This document shows positions 51,361-58,007 of a stretch of DNA of 64,000 nt, one piece after another. The stretch covers positions 43,884 to 107,883 of the forward strand of contig VGLU01000002.1 of NCBI GenBank assembly GCA_016882195.1. Direction: 5' to 3'. Below the pieces are notes generated by a model, which saw only the letters and a list, made by a program, of their open reading frames with translations, had not been told where the DNA came from and ran no database searches. Made by a program: the position numbers and the translations under genes. How positions within the stretch are numbered: the first letter of the stretch is position 1; the number at the start of each line of letters is the position of its first letter. Origin of the DNA: Thermoproteota archaeon. Lineage in GTDB: Archaea; Thermoproteota; Methanomethylicia; Methanomethylicales; Methanomethylicaceae.

Positions 51361-51405
51361 CTAGAAGACCGGATCAGCACCTCAGGCGATTGGGGACGGC
51401 GGGCT
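51361..51405 (-). repeat. Repeat copy E: 45-nt perfect copy of the 23S rRNA 3'-terminal segment (helix-1 3' strand and preceding 30 nt).
   Basis: Identical to 57961-58005. Same orientation as the 23S gene. Confidence 0.8.
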
Positions 51406-51448
51406 TCCTTAATGAAAACACAATGCACATTACTGCCTATTTTAGGAA

Positions 51449-52174
51449 CTATGCGATTTGAACACTGCAGAAGGATGGGTCGGTCTTTTTTAGTTCAGCC
51501 CGCCCCTCGATGGTAAGCTGCCTGAAGTTCACTTTCTTAAGGTGCTTCTTGGCATCCCTAACAGCTATAGATAGTTCTTGAGGGGTAGGGGGTTTTAATG
51601 TAATTCCTGGTACGGGTATGTATGCGGTGATGTGGAATCCGATCTCAGGGTCTATCGAAGCAACAAATTCAGCGATACGTTCGACCTCATCAGTAGTTAC
51701 TATTTCGGGGATGAGGACCGTGCTTGCTTCAAGGCGGATGCCCCTCTCGTACGCATCTCTGAAATTGGCTAAGACAGATTTGTTGGTGGTGCCCGTGTAA
51801 GCAAAATGGGCACGTTCATCATATGCCTTTATGCTTATGGACGCCTCGTCAATGTAGTCCGGCATTCTTATCGAGCCGTTTGAATGACCTATTTTTGTTA
51901 CAGCGCCCAACTCTTCATGTGCAAACTTTGCAATTCTGCTGAGCGCCGGATTTGAGGTAGGTTCGCCTCCTAGGAAATGAACCCTTTTAGGCCTTAGGGA
52001 TGCCAATATTCCAATAATTCTACTTTCATCTAGCGCCTTTGCACACGACTCTGCCATCTCAGCGGGATTGATCTTATAGGCGCACCCAACACATTTGAAG
52101 TTGCATCCTGAATTATAGATGCATATCCTAGAGCTGCCACAATTCTCATTTAGAGTGATCTTGTAGAAAGTCAA
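51449..52174 (-). CDS. Radical SAM protein (small activase-like; NrdG/PflA/QueE-like size class).
   Basis: 241 aa. CxxxCxxC cluster (SGCNFKCVGC) near the N-terminus. Confidence 0.65.
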   Translation of the reverse strand: MTFYKITLNENCGSSRICIYNSGCNFKCVGCAYKINPAEMAESCAKALDESRIIGILASLRPKRVHFLGGEPTSNPALSRIAKFAHEELGAVTKIGHSNGSIRMPDYIDEASISIKAYDERAHFAYTGTTNKSVLANFRDAYERGIRLEASTVLIPEIVTTDEVERIAEFVASIDPEIGFHITAYIPVPGITLKPPTPQELSIAVRDAKKHLKKVNFRQLTIEGRAELKKTDPSFCSVQIA

Positions 52175-52269
52175 GCAGACCCTGCCCCACGTATACCTTA
52201 ACTTGAGATTTCACCTAAATATAAGTATTATTTTTTTTAAAAAAAGTGGTACTTTCGCATAAGTGAGCC

Positions 52270-52339
52270 GTGCACAGACTCCGGCTTCCTCGTTTTCACC
52301 CAGGCTTGGGACCAGATCTGCACCTCAGACGATTGGGGG
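52270..52339 (-). repeat. Repeat copy D: diverged copy (about 75-80% identity) of the 23S 3' end plus trailer element.
   Basis: GTGCACAGACTCCGGCTTCCTCGTTTTCACCCAGGCTTGGGACCAGATCTGCACCTCAGACGATTGGGGG aligns with 57927-57995. Confidence 0.65.
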
Positions 52340-52473
52340 CAACGCAACGTACGCCTCGGTCTCGAATACATCAACCGATAACTGGATCAGCACTTTCATC
52401 AAAAGGGTCAAGACGACTTAAATTTAAATACCTTGATTGAACTTAAACAATTCTTGCCTTCGAGGTTTTCGAT

Positions 52474-56164: not shown

Positions 56165-56206
56165 ATGGGCTGTCGTCTTTCATTTATAAATGTGTTTTTA
56201 TTAACG

Positions 56207-56276
56207 CCATGCACGGTTCCAGCTTTCCCGGTTTCACCCAGGCTTAGAAGACCGGATCTGCACCTCAGGCCATTGG
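56207..56276 (-). repeat. Repeat copy B: copy of the 23S 3' end plus trailer element, about 93% identity.
   Basis: CCATGCACGGTTCCAGCTTTCCCGGTTTCACCCAGGCTTAGAAGACCGGATCTGCACCTCAGGCCATTGG aligns with 57927-57996. Confidence 0.75.
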
Positions 56277-56406
56277 ATTCGTAACCCATCCATGAATCCC
56301 TCCACGACGAACTAACACTCTAGGAATGAATATTGCCCCGGCACGCCCTGATGCGTCCCATATCGCTTGGGCAAAAGCGTAATTAACGCCCTCCTCGCCA
56401 TAACAA

Positions 56407-57867
56407 TTGGTAAGGGTGAACCCCTTGCCTAACAACTTCTACAGAAGGCTCATCGAGGCCTCCAACCTCTCCTCCTTCCGTGACCTCCTCATCGTCCCCG
56501 GCAGGTCAGAGGTCGAGCCCTCGCAGATAGCCATAGCCTCCACCTTCTCCACCAACATCAGGATCAACCTCCCATTTGTCTCGAGCCCCATGGACACCGT
56601 AACCGAGAGCAGGATGGCAGTCGCCCTCGCCCGCCTCGGGGGTCTTGGCGTCATCCACAGGAACATGAGCGCGGAGGAGCAGGTGGAGCAGGCGAAGAAG
56701 GTAAAGAGGGCCGAGTCCTTCATAATAAGGGACGTCTTCACCATATCCCCAGGCGCTAGGGTGAAGGACGCCATCGAGATAATGACCAAGAACAGCATCT
56801 CCGGCCTCCCGGTGGTGGAGGGCGAGCGCCTCGTGGGCATCTTGACGAAGAGGGACGTCTCCTTCGCGGAGATGGGCACGGACATCAGGAGCGTCATGAC
56901 GAAGAGGGTGATAACCGCCCCCCAGACCGTCACCGTCGAGGAGGCAAAGAGGACAATGCACGACCACCGGATTGAGAAGCTCCCGGTCGTGGATAAAGAC
57001 GGCAAGCTCCAAGGTCTCATAACCGTCAAGGACATCTACTCCCGCGAGAAGTACTCCTCAGCCACGAGGGACTCACAGGGTCGTCTGATGGTCGCCGCCG
57101 CTGTATCCCCCTTTGACCTGGAGCGGGCTAAGGCACTGGACAAATACGTGGACGCCTTGGTCAGCGACGTGGCGCACTTCCACAACTCGAACATCCTCGA
57201 CGCCGCGAGGAGAATGGCCAAGGAAGTATCCGCCGATCTTGTCATAGGCAATATCGGCACCGCGCAGGCTCTCAAGGACTCAGTCGGCGCCGTGGAGAGG
57301 GTGAACGGGGTCAGGGCCGGCATAGGATCCGGCTCCACGTGCATAACCTCGCAGGTCACAAAGGCCGGGGCTCCCACGCTCTTCGCCGTGGCTGAGATAG
57401 CCGACGTCCTTGAAGAGCTAAACCTGAAAATCCCAATAATCGCCGACGGGGGCATAAGGACACCGGGTGACGCCATGCTCGCCTTGGCTGTCGGTGCCTC
57501 GACCGTAATGATGGGCAACGTCTTCGCCGGCTGTAGCGAGTCGCCAGGGAACCTGATAAAGATAGGTGGGAAGTACTACAAGCCCATCCGGGGCATGGGC
57601 AGTCCATCGGCCCGCCAGAAGAGGTTCGCGGTGGACAGGTACGCCTCCATGGCAAAGGGCATAGCGGAGGGCGTGGAGGGGTACGTCCCCTACCGCGGTG
57701 ACCTCCAGATAGTCATGGACGAGTTCTCGGCCGGACTAAAGGCCGCCCTCGGGTACGCTGGGGCGAAAAACATCAAGGACCTCTGGGAGAAGGCGAGGTT
57801 CGGCACCGTCTCCAGCGCGGCGCTGGAGGGGGCGGGTGTGAGGGACCTCATGCTGCCAGGCGACTAG
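56407..57867 (+). CDS. guaB: Inosine-5'-monophosphate dehydrogenase.
   Basis: 486 aa. SSPMDTVTE, an inserted CBS pair, GIGSGSTCITS catalytic loop and C-terminal IMPDH motifs. Confidence 0.85.
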   Translation: MVRVNPLPNNFYRRLIEASNLSSFRDLLIVPGRSEVEPSQIAIASTFSTNIRINLPFVSSPMDTVTESRMAVALARLGGLGVIHRNMSAEEQVEQAKKVKRAESFIIRDVFTISPGARVKDAIEIMTKNSISGLPVVEGERLVGILTKRDVSFAEMGTDIRSVMTKRVITAPQTVTVEEAKRTMHDHRIEKLPVVDKDGKLQGLITVKDIYSREKYSSATRDSQGRLMVAAAVSPFDLERAKALDKYVDALVSDVAHFHNSNILDAARRMAKEVSADLVIGNIGTAQALKDSVGAVERVNGVRAGIGSGSTCITSQVTKAGAPTLFAVAEIADVLEELNLKIPIIADGGIRTPGDAMLALAVGASTVMMGNVFAGCSESPGNLIKIGGKYYKPIRGMGSPSARQKRFAVDRYASMAKGIAEGVEGYVPYRGDLQIVMDEFSAGLKAALGYAGAKNIKDLWEKARFGTVSSAALEGAGVRDLMLPGD

Positions 57868-57926
57868 TCTGCCTGATCGAGTTTAGCTCAAAAACCCTTT
57901 CGCATTATTTAGAATTGCTATCACAC

Positions 57927-58007
57927 ATGCACAGGTTCCAGCTTTCCCGGTTTCACCCAGGTCTAGAAGACCGGATCAGCACCTCAGGCGATTGGGGACG
58001 GCGGGCT
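57927..58007 (-). repeat. Reference copy A of the repeated element: the authentic 23S rRNA 3' terminus (helix 1) plus the roughly 35-nt 3' trailer that pairs with the ITS to form the 23S processing stem.
   Basis: Trailer CTGGAACCTGTGCATG (sense) is complementary to ITS CCGTGCACAGGTTCCAG upstream of the 23S 5' end. GGTCTTCTAGACC pairs with the 23S 5' GGTTTAGAAGTAACC (helix 1). Confidence 0.8.

Follow-up and report, generated by a model that had tools for sequence, protein, structure and literature searches.

The window analyzed here, a 64-kb stretch of a contig from a Methanomethylicia-type archaeon, contains a single 16S-23S rRNA operon on the minus strand. The region upstream of the 16S gene is a conserved FKBP/hydrogenase neighborhood. 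Downstream of the 23S gene, its 3' end and trailer recur as direct copies between small groups of genes, here called cassettes, up to a conserved M32 carboxypeptidase gene, and the RNase P RNA gene marks the far limit of the variable region. The operon, its processing stem and the distal genes are located as follows.

61210-62707, minus strand: 16S rRNA gene
61025-61097, minus strand: leader strand of the 23S processing stem, in the internal transcribed spacer (RNAcofold; nhmmer reverse-strand match at 61010-61092)
61053-61056, minus strand: leader-side bulge of the stem, AGAC
57973-61034, minus strand: 23S rRNA gene, full length (Rfam RF02540, 2735.9 bits)
57973-58023, minus strand: 3' part of 23S that is duplicated in the copies (last 28-51 nt of the mature RNA)
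57916-58007, minus strand: copy A, the functional 23S 3' end and trailer; the trailer (57916-57972) is the 3' strand of the stem
57951-57953, minus strand: trailer-side bulge AAA in copy A
49746-51287, minus strand: M32 carboxypeptidase gene (Pfam PF02074)
49027-49333, minus strand: RNase P RNA gene (Rfam RF00373)

Leader and trailer are predicted by RNAcofold to form a stem of about 60 bp (dG −86.7 kcal/mol) with a bulge-helix-bulge-like motif inside, which bears out the original prediction that the trailer is complementary to the spacer leader and constitutes one half of the 23S processing stem. The repeated unit comprises the entire 3' strand of this stem plus the final ~28-51 nt of mature 23S. 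The distal end of copy A reads TGTGATAGC, the ancestral form being GGCGTTAAT. The other copies and relics, with identities relative to copy A, are:

56201-56282, minus strand: copy B, starting ~28 nt inside mature 23S and ending GTGCATGGCGTTAAT; 65/70 identical (92.9%)
55188-55266, minus strand: copy C, whose distal flank exactly matches the flank of the genuine trailer in L043; 61/72 identical (84.7%)
53751-53763, minus strand: relic copy C' (ACCAGTGAAAACG), between the second membrane protein gene and apgM
52383-52394: possible seventh relic (GTGCTGATCCAG), beside copy D
52267-52366, minus strand: copy D, starting ~50 nt inside mature 23S (TTCGAGACCGAGG) and aligning from A coordinate 58023; core 57/70 identical (81.4%), 75.5% over 98 aligned columns
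51361-51405, minus strand: copy E, 45 nt, with its start 37 nt within 23S and its truncated end at TCTTCTAG, 8 nt beyond the mature end; 45/45 identical (100%) to 57963-58007

The five copies A-E that had been noticed in the first reading of the sequence are thus all real and share the minus strand with the 23S gene, but copy D is longer than was claimed, since it reaches ~50 nt into mature 23S. In its 23S part D has the GCAGATCTGG variant that is characteristic of strains L041-L043. Alignment with L043, L049 and L042 identified C' as the remnant of a distal half-copy after a deletion of ~52 nt; it is recognizable as a copy because these relatives keep the full distal half, retaining ..ACC-RGTGAAAAYG.GGAACC-GTGCATGRCG at the same site after the membrane protein gene. 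B and C do share an extra flank (ATTAACGCCATGCACGG). It lengthens the pairing with the leader (GGCG:CGCC), and in three related strains the genuine 23S trailer ends with it. There is no need to derive B and C from a second rRNA operon, as had been suggested, because their flank corresponds to the ancestral trailer end of relatives.

A chance origin of the copies is excluded by k-mer counts. The 17-mer of the mature 23S end (up to 3 mismatches) gave 4 matches against 0.15 expected, and a 28-mer of the trailer gave 3 against 0.00 expected, all within the array. No copies were found elsewhere in the 64-kb window, the other 57 kb being empty, which argues against the repeat being one that is dispersed over the genome. 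Three metagenome matches outside the lineage were chance matches within coding sequence. Among the full copies identity drops with distance from the 23S gene (B 92.9%, C 84.7%, D 81.4%). The age gradient is not clean, because C' is more decayed than D although it lies closer to the 23S gene, and E is fully identical though old. The age of E is indicated by a degenerate version at the equivalent place upstream of the M32 gene in L047. Copies A and D of L042 have strain-specific variants in common, a clear sign of gene conversion.

The segments between the copies hold the following genes.

56407-57867, plus strand: cassette 1, IMP dehydrogenase (IMPDH) with a CBS pair (Pfam PF00478, E = 1.3e-105)
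55244-56164, minus strand: cassette 2, membrane protein and degraded SRPBCC-like pseudogene
55664-56164, minus strand: membrane protein of cassette 2, 166 aa, an open reading frame with no Pfam match
55244-55635, minus strand: SRPBCC-like pseudogene of cassette 2, with stops in all frames, ending inside copy C
53756-55088, mixed strands: cassette 3, VapBC and a YdjM-like membrane protein (Pfam)
54633-55088, plus strand: VapC PIN toxin of cassette 3 (Pfam)
54412-54645, plus strand: VapB of cassette 3 (Pfam)
53756-54292, minus strand: YdjM-like membrane protein of cassette 3, 178 aa (Pfam)
52474-53682, plus strand: cassette 4, apgM, cofactor-independent phosphoglycerate mutase (Pfam PF10143, PF01676)
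51449-52174, minus strand: cassette 5, radical-SAM protein, 241 aa (Pfam PF04055)

The cassettes measure 0.9-2.9 kb and contain one to four genes, in all cases without an integrase. Gene orientation is mixed among them, and TATA-like boxes follow copies B and D. The IMPDH gene is convergent with the 23S gene; in GTDB relatives its homologue (71-88% identical) lies away from rRNA and has no neighbors in common with the window. The gene in cassette 2 that had been described as a frameshifted SRPBCC gene is indeed degraded and ends in copy C, and its frameshift was reproduced in Logan contigs, but its SRPBCC identity has no Pfam support. GC3 is very uneven, ranging from 0.48 to 0.84 against a background of 0.59 ± 0.05; that of IMPDH is 0.83 and that of cassette 5 (0.48) is far below neighboring genes. 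Together with the VapBC module and the pseudogene, this is consistent with a mosaic foreign origin.

The array was recovered in other assemblies. Positions 51361-57992 of the window were tiled at 100% identity by Logan contigs L001 and L053 (SRR7989281), and Logan contig L054 (SRR7008372) was 99.95% identical to the window array. JGI contigs L060 and L061, from two other samples, showed 99.98-99.99% identity across 41.7-59.3 kb. The array, including copies B, C and D and the junction of IMPDH, trailer and 23S, was found in 5 independent contigs from at least 4 samples. Logan contigs end at copies E and A, with an exact breakpoint at E.

For comparison we used related populations with 23S genes 92-98% identical (contigs named L0xx). 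Two of these, L039 and L045, have an empty site in which the 23S trailer is followed by the M32 peptidase and RNase P RNA genes and the 51.3-57.9 kb block is absent, as anticipated by the synteny check proposed earlier. The interval from 23S to RNase P RNA was different in every strain examined, with alternative gene sets between two conserved anchors. In L038/L048, apgM is the first cassette after the 23S gene. The VapBC cassette lies directly 3' of 23S in L042 and L043; it is followed in L042 by a membrane protein pseudogene, apgM and then copy D, and in L043 by a membrane protein gene, a half copy, a binding protein gene with a different radical-SAM gene, and then a copy. In L041/L051 the array carries CbiMNQO and an F430 biosynthesis cluster, the latter exceeding 10 kb in L051. 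A duplication that is not of the att type occurs in L047, where a piece of the RNase P 5' region and its upstream ORF lie beside the 23S trailer.

The apgM cassette was found in five downstream contexts among the relatives, each joined inside a copy, and the same proximal copy piece always accompanies apgM, whatever lies beyond. At least seven different sequences begin right after one distal edge, GCGT(T)AAT, where the processing stem has its base. The empty sites, the nested and different cassette sets and the apgM joints therefore indicate that the internal copies are recombination joints. The proximal part of a copy (the last 28-51 nt of 23S) moves with the cassette on its 23S side and the distal part, from the trailer to the processing-stem base, with the cassette below. 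The gene end is restored in this process: the flank of copy C in the window equals the true trailer flank of L043, and copy A pairs with the leader over the whole stem. The region is thus an array of gene cassettes, additive and hypervariable, that has its anchor at the 23S 3' end, and the proposal of repeated insertion at a stable-RNA gene 3' end, with one copy per event, is strongly supported by the empty sites and alternative cassettes.

The edges of the copies are less uniform. Proximal edges within 23S vary (−28, −30, −37 and ~−50), and truncation points differ by 3-8 nt, within ~10 nt. Three truncated copies end in a zone of 10 nt that immediately follows the mature end (GGTCTTCTAG). Across this zone all four combinations of the flanking variants occur (GCTGATCCGG or GCAGATCTGG with AGACC or AAGCC), and the zone may be where exchange takes place.

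No integrase or integrase remnant was found in the 64-kb window, in agreement with the earlier remark that none is visible there, and none of the 23S-array cassettes in the relatives has an integrase with copies on both sides. L049 has a tyrosine integrase gene that directly adjoins its VapBC cassette, and the junction falls precisely on the unit's distal edge. The two are not separated by a copy, and the contig stops inside the integrase gene. Relatives of this integrase (~60% identical) are located at tRNA-type or ordinary sites, not at rRNA. A second array was found 2-3 kb away from the 23S array, at the RNase P RNA gene of L048, where three direct copies of the 3' 33 nt of that gene delimit two segments. 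One is an integrase element with an ORF that begins within the RNA gene, and the other is an older cassette of a single gene that has no integrase. The older cassette encodes a homologue of the membrane protein of cassette 3 in the window, which also occurs in L047. L047 has one RNase P-type cassette and the window none, its RNase P site being empty. Scans of viral contigs found no free element with an attP.

We consider serial site-specific integration, followed by integrase loss (gene capture) and shuffling between copies, the most likely mechanism, with a probability of roughly 0.55. Circular integrative elements would carry an attP with the sequence of the 23S 3' end and of the complete stem strand formed by the trailer, and would recombine with the chromosomal 23S end via a tyrosine integrase. 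Maturation of 23S would be kept because the element supplies a working replacement trailer, while the displaced original end would stay downstream as a dead, decaying copy. New elements would enter beside the 23S gene and push older ones outward. The integrase and most element genes would then be lost, as in archaeal gene capture, leaving remnants of ~1-3 kb, and later recombination between copies would delete, replace and shuffle cassettes among strains. The empty sites, nested arrays and joints inside copies favor gene capture, as do the fall in identity with distance from 23S, the possible exchange zone and the signs of foreign origin, and indirect support comes from the analogous RNase P array with an integrase in L048 and the integrase at the cassette edge in L049. 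Against it stand the lack of an integrase in the window, of any complete element in the 23S arrays of relatives and of a copy beside the L049 integrase, the location of relatives of that integrase away from rRNA, and the imperfect age gradient. In addition, IMPDH, apgM and the L051 F430 cluster are unusual cargo, and the scattered proximal edges and truncation points are looser than expected for one integrase with one crossover point.

These observations leave some room for an origin without any recombinase, which we regard as a possible though distinctly weaker explanation. Here the end of the rRNA operon, which is heavily transcribed, or its GGTCTTCTAGACC palindrome would be a fragile site. 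DNA of diverged relatives could enter by homology-facilitated illegitimate recombination with the 23S gene as one-sided anchor, or replication could switch templates, copy an ectopic segment and return to a point 28-51 nt within 23S, so that the end becomes duplicated. The cassettes would then be shuffled by ordinary homologous recombination, for which the 70-100-bp copies and also the conserved 23S and RNase P RNA genes would provide the homology. This would agree with the lack of an integrase in the array, the variable edges and the ~10-nt spread of truncations, and with a content of ordinary chromosomal genes that have their own promoters, lie in both orientations and, for IMPDH and apgM, occur in ordinary contexts in relatives. 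The duplication in L047, the gene conversion between copies and the precedent of a variable island between rRNA genes in SAR11 point the same way. It does not readily account for a sharp distal edge common to at least seven unrelated downstream sequences, for an adjacent RNase P array of the same architecture that has an integrase, or for the L049 integrase gene exactly at the unit edge. Moreover, insertion was orderly, at one point and with the trailer intact each time, unlike random illegitimate events.

It is rather unlikely that the 3' strand of the stem is a dedicated, reusable recombination site where self-expressed cassettes, among them core-metabolism genes such as IMPDH, apgM and an F430 cluster, are gathered, rearranged and exchanged by the cell or by a trans-acting recombinase. 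If true, this would be an archaeal cassette platform on the rRNA operon that is independent of classical mobile elements, with a second platform at the RNase P RNA gene. An integron-like platform, where a recombinase encoded elsewhere moves promoter-bearing cassettes with the unit as site and the 23S end as primary site, seems improbable, although the cassettes are small with one unit each, one and the same cassette can be found at different array positions and in different contexts, there is a toxin-antitoxin cassette of the sort that chromosomal integrons contain, and the newest cassette lies beside the anchor. No recombinase gene adjoins the platform in any strain and the region upstream of 16S is conserved. 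The cassette-like array considered in the original prediction also fails, as an integron-like system, on structure: the units have no hairpin of their own (ssDNA folding z-scores −0.24 to +0.58 for A-D), and gene orientation is mixed. The decay of the copies and their loss of halves suggest that no activity as recombination sites is being preserved.

Very little weight can be given to the view that the copies are selected RNA or DNA signals, such as terminators, RNA-processing sites or decoys pairing with the 23S leader, instead of insertion scars. Every copy is intergenic and on the 23S strand, E is perfectly conserved, and by sequence inspection a small hairpin (AUCCGG/CUGGGU) keeps its pairing in C and D despite one-sided changes. 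However, copies have lost halves or acquired indels, and coding sequence runs into them; their positions, either before promoters or behind convergent genes, follow no regular pattern with respect to transcription units, and they are absent from the remainder of the window, and are dispensable in relatives with an empty site. An assembly artefact through mis-joined rRNA-end reads, in which only copy A would be real, is practically excluded by the recovery of copies B-D in independent assemblies and by homologous arrays in relatives, even though rRNA operon ends are often contig break points and Logan contigs are broken at E and A. Transposon or casposon insertion was rejected, as the repeats are 45-100 nt long and not target duplications of ≤15 bp, and no inverted repeats bound the cassettes.

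Integration hotspots described in prokaryotes are tRNA and tmRNA genes and a few protein genes. Here the end of an rRNA gene probably serves for gene capture in the way that was previously known for tRNA genes. In the literature searched, an rRNA gene end as integration hotspot is unreported; rRNA targets are mentioned neither in an archaeal tyrosine recombinase review nor in a Thaumarchaeota integrated-element survey (0 occurrences of 'rRNA'). The stable-RNA targets of gene capture would thereby be extended by rRNA and, in relatives, by RNase P RNA. The single-copy 23S gene of this lineage appears to withstand recombination time and again within 0-50 nt of its 3' end, since a working processing-stem strand comes with each insert. 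The populations range from an empty site to six cassettes, a series from which the succession of events is readable. The array also explains the breaks and variation of contigs of these archaea beside the rRNA operon, which matter for binning and for linking 16S sequences to genomes. Relocation of the housekeeping genes IMPDH and apgM into the array bears on gene-order remodeling in uncultured methanogen relatives.

With integrons (attI, attC, IntI) the array shares one site per small cassette, a combinatorial arrangement, a toxin-antitoxin cassette and insertion beside a fixed anchor downstream of a strong promoter. It differs in the lack of an adjacent integrase, the non-hairpin unit, mixed orientation, cassettes with their own promoters, and decaying copies. 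Phages that integrate into the 3' end of a protein gene, such as phage 21 and e14 in icd, also bring a substitute 3' end and leave the displaced end as a pseudo-copy, but these are single events in a protein-coding target with the integrase present. In SAR11 a hypervariable region, HVR2, splits the rRNA genes (PMC7318151) and is likewise a strain-variable island between conserved stable-RNA genes usable as recombination anchors; that island is large and of the replacement type, with no reported rRNA-end repeats, whereas the present array is additive and punctuated by copies.

Parallels are also found among archaeal integrases. As described in PMC7253208, SSV-type ('suicidal') integrases have their att site within the int ORF. 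The L048 integrase ORF similarly begins inside an RNase P RNA 3' end copy, beside a similar repeat array, and self-inactivation of this type would explain captured cassettes that are free of integrase. Unlike the SSV case, this feature is at RNase P RNA and not at 23S, and the 23S array yielded no halves of a split integrase. Tandem arrays of elements integrated at tRNA or tmRNA genes (noted in PMC6563490) and gene capture in archaea (She et al. 2001, 2004, cited in PMC8371274) differ from the present array in that the target here is the 23S 3' end with its processing-stem trailer, and in that the remnants are very small (0.9-2.9 kb), all without integrase and inclusive of IMPDH and apgM. They resemble it in having an intact RNA gene at one end, segments bounded by same-orientation copies of its 3' part, a gene end restored by the incoming DNA, the newest segment beside the gene, and empty sites in relatives. 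As in archaeal gene capture, loss of the integrase would leave the captured genes behind.

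The 23S rRNA gene of this archaeon, a member of the Methanomethylicia ('Verstraetearchaeota'), is followed by an array of direct copies of its own 3' end and trailer. Four such copies (B-E), all in the orientation of the 23S gene, had been predicted downstream of the functional end (A). All four were found in place, as was a relic (C') of a further copy.

rRNA genes, RNase P RNA and copies of the 23S rRNA 3' end in the window (identities relative to copy A)
61210-62707, minus strand, 16S rRNA, in the only 16S-23S operon of the window
57973-61034, minus strand, 23S rRNA
7187-7308, 5S rRNA, unlinked to the operon
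49027-49333, RNase P RNA
57927-58007, direct on the 23S strand, copy A, the reference
56207-56276, direct on the 23S strand, copy B, 92.9% identical
55195-55264, direct on the 23S strand, copy C, 84.7% identical
52270-52339 (extended span 52267-52366), direct on the 23S strand, copy D, 81.4% identical
51361-51405, direct on the 23S strand, copy E, 100% identical (45/45)
53751-53763, relic C', the 13 nt that survive of a sixth copy

Copy D reaches about 50 nt inside the 23S gene. Relatives retain the distal half of C' in the corresponding position, behind the YdjM-like membrane gene. A mature-23S 17-mer had four matches in the 64-kb window when up to 3 mismatches were allowed (0.15 expected), a trailer 28-mer had three (0.00 expected), and no match to either fell outside the array in these 64 kb. 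This confinement, together with an array content that varies between relatives, speaks against a generic dispersed repeat. The array was recovered at 99.95-100% identity in Logan contigs from two runs (SRR7989281 and SRR7008372) and in JGI contigs from two further samples. Since independent contigs reproduce it, assembly error is excluded, including the collapse of rRNA reads considered in the original prediction.

From the 23S gene outward, the segments (cassettes) between copies carry IMPDH; a 166-aa membrane protein and a degraded pseudogene that runs into copy C; VapBC and a YdjM-like membrane protein; apgM; and a radical-SAM gene, in mixed orientation. Past copy E follow the M32 carboxypeptidase gene and then RNase P RNA. 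GC3 within the array ranged from 0.48 (radical SAM) to 0.83-0.84 (IMPDH, VapC), compared with 0.59 ± 0.05 in long ORFs of the window's first 45 kb. The M32 and TiaS-like genes (46804-51287), outside the array, also had a very high GC3 of 0.78-0.81, so that the compositionally unusual region exceeds the repeat-bounded block. The TiaS-like gene (46804-48114; Pfam families taken from the homologous gene in the relative L047) adjoins a 94-nt tRNA (45955-46048) that ARAGORN could not type, the anticodon being read as 'cata'. This is probably an intron-containing CAU tRNA, and the two genes suggest a tRNA-Ile2/agmatidine synthetase pair.

The repeated unit consists of the entire 3' strand of the 23S processing stem plus the final 28-51 nt of mature 23S. 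When the ITS leader (61025-61097) and the trailer (57916-57982) were co-folded, they paired almost without interruption over about 60 bp (ΔG -86.7 kcal/mol). The predicted stem contains a 3-nt trailer bulge AAA (57951-57953), four base pairs and a 4-nt leader bulge AGAC, a pattern that would form a bulge-helix-bulge-like processing motif. Breakpoints of the copies do not coincide with its cleavage site; the trailer bulge lies about 10 nt downstream of the truncation of E. Copies B and C terminate in GTGCATGGCGTTAAT, which pairs further along the leader than the present end of A. This flank, originally described as absent from the authentic trailer, is real and is the genuine trailer end in the related strains L041, L042 and L043. 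The unit alone folds no better than shuffled sequence, and attC-like folding was rejected.

To compare gene order downstream of 23S we used GTDB species representatives, among which the source genome is not included, and a metagenome scan with the trailer pattern. The closest IMPDH loci of the representatives (71-88% identical) had no rRNA nearby, no unit and no neighbours in common with the window. The scan yielded 13 loci, 10 of them from populations with 92-98% identical 23S; matches L034, L037 and L046 were discarded as chance hits inside coding sequence of unrelated organisms. Populations of this kind are represented in JGI samples 3300020083, 3300020222, 3300031862 and 3300032020 as well as in the two runs named above. 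Gene content 3' of 23S was different in every related strain.

Order after the 23S trailer in related contigs
L039, L045: M32, RNase P (empty site)
L035: secreted protein, RNase P
L038/L048: apgM, degenerate copy, Zn-ribbon protein, secreted protein, RNase P
L036/L047: small ORFs and duplicated RNase P 5' fragment, apgM, truncated copy, EamA/ChrB/MFS, degenerate E, M32
L042: VapBC, membrane pseudogene, half copy, apgM, full copy, small membrane protein
L043: VapBC, membrane gene, half copy, binding protein and another radical-SAM gene, full copy, L042-type small membrane protein
L049: as L042, plus a transglutaminase-like cassette after apgM
L041/L051: CbiMNQO and F430/sirohaem biosynthesis cluster

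As anticipated for relatives without the block, L039 and L045 carry M32 directly after the trailer. L041, examined for an intact element, held CbiMNQO and the F430 biosynthesis cluster and no integrase. In L051 (1-10864) the cluster (with CbiX, NifH-like, NifD-like and CbiA-like genes) directly follows the trailer, which places core methanogenesis cofactor genes at the variable site. The duplicated fragment of L047 (11268-11635, about 77% identical to window 49257-49677), between apgM and the trailer, consists of the initial 77 nt of RNase P RNA together with the region of small ORFs upstream of it, a rearrangement not of the att type. An apgM gene 82% identical to that of the window (L050, 4186-5382) is surrounded by a LysR-type regulator, a PALP enzyme and a MIP channel with no rRNA or unit, consistent with the gene having moved between contexts. 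The closest GTDB relative (L002) has a 117-nt direct repeat (99%; 2471-2587 and 4956-5072) and a 31-nt repeat (84%; 362-392 and 3324-3354) flanking an IMPDH and membrane-protein block. Neither is similar to the 23S unit; the 31-nt repeat, at first sight vaguely like the 23S end, was judged unrelated.

Three observations mark the copies as places where segments join. What follows copy C in the window also follows the genuine 23S trailer of L043, the proximal copy piece at apgM is always the same (GATGGTATTCGAGGCCGAGG...) regardless of the gene's downstream neighbour, and at least seven unrelated sequences start directly after the shared distal edge of the unit. The array appears to grow on the 23S side, and the identity gradient among full copies (B > C > D) agrees with this. 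Exceptions are E, which is old (its degenerate form is common to L047) yet perfect in the window, and C', which is heavily degraded though located between C and D. In L042 copies A and D share strain-specific variants, indicating gene conversion, which can explain both exceptions. Three truncated copies end at most 10 nt apart just past the mature 23S end, after GGTC, TCTTCTAG and TCTTCTACGCC, and variants flanking this zone occur in all four combinations among strains. This is suggestive, though not proof, of frequent exchange there. An integrase crossover for 23S would map to the GGTCTTCTAG zone.

A second array was found at the RNase P RNA gene of relatives, with direct copies of 33-41 nt. 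In L048 the 3' 33 nt occur three times (100%, 97% and 79%).

Copies of the RNase P RNA 3' end
L048: 5535-5567, 6332-6364, 7955-7987
L047: 4494-4534, 5165-5205
Window: 49021-49060, single copy (empty site)

The L048 copies bound a proximal small element, whose tyrosine integrase ORF has its start within the RNA gene, and also an older cassette with one gene and no integrase. Of these two, L047 carries just the one-gene cassette, the product of which is a homologue of the YdjM-like membrane protein of the 23S array; the window has none. Thus in the same lineage, a few kb away, an integrase array at a stable-RNA gene decays to integrase-free single-gene cassettes. At the 23S array itself, a tyrosine integrase gene in L049 lies directly against the VapBC cassette, at the precise point where L042 has the end of the unit.

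These two findings from relatives make integrase-mediated capture the best-supported explanation of the 23S array. Against it stand the lack of a copy between the L049 integrase and the VapBC cassette, the ordinary tRNA-type relatives of that integrase, the housekeeping cargo and the non-uniform copy edges. Homologues of the L049 integrase were found in a provirus-like island by moaA, at a tRNA 3' half (L059) and on contigs ending just past the integrase gene; in the contexts examined, some cut off in this way, none had rRNA beside it. Three independent contigs (L055, L056 and L057) encode one and the same integrase (P0122), which shares 60% identity with that of L049, and all three end 52-66 nt after its stop codon. 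This points to a repeat there, or to a junction that varies between strains. Searches of the window by tblastn with the integrases of both relatives and with an HMM of 120 homologues revealed no integrase, the RNase P-encoded stretch being the sole match. The unit pattern had 0 matches in viral contigs in two scans, so these yielded no virus or plasmid with the site.

A recombinase-free origin is a serious, though less likely, rival. Incoming DNA would be anchored on 23S by homology at one side and joined illegitimately at the other, or replication would switch templates at a fragile operon end; homologous recombination between copies would then shuffle the segments. A regulatory RNA role of the copies is unlikely given their decay and the existence of empty sites. 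An integron-like platform is likewise unlikely: no recombinase lies next to the array, the unit lacks a hairpin, the genes point in both directions and the sites are subject to decay.

The 23S array has the architecture of tandem island arrays at tRNA/tmRNA genes and of archaeal gene capture, with a different target, the 23S rRNA end. The targets listed in a review on archaeal tyrosine recombinases and in a survey of Thaumarchaeota integrated elements are tRNA genes, the 3' ends of protein genes and intergenic sites, and the word 'rRNA' is absent from both. In the literature searched, integration into the 3' end of an rRNA gene was not reported, nor was the use of RNase P RNA as an att site. 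In SAR11 a variable island lies between rRNA genes, without repeats like those described here. On present comparisons the 23S array appears to be a known architecture at a new target, well documented at the population level and with a putative recombinase component.
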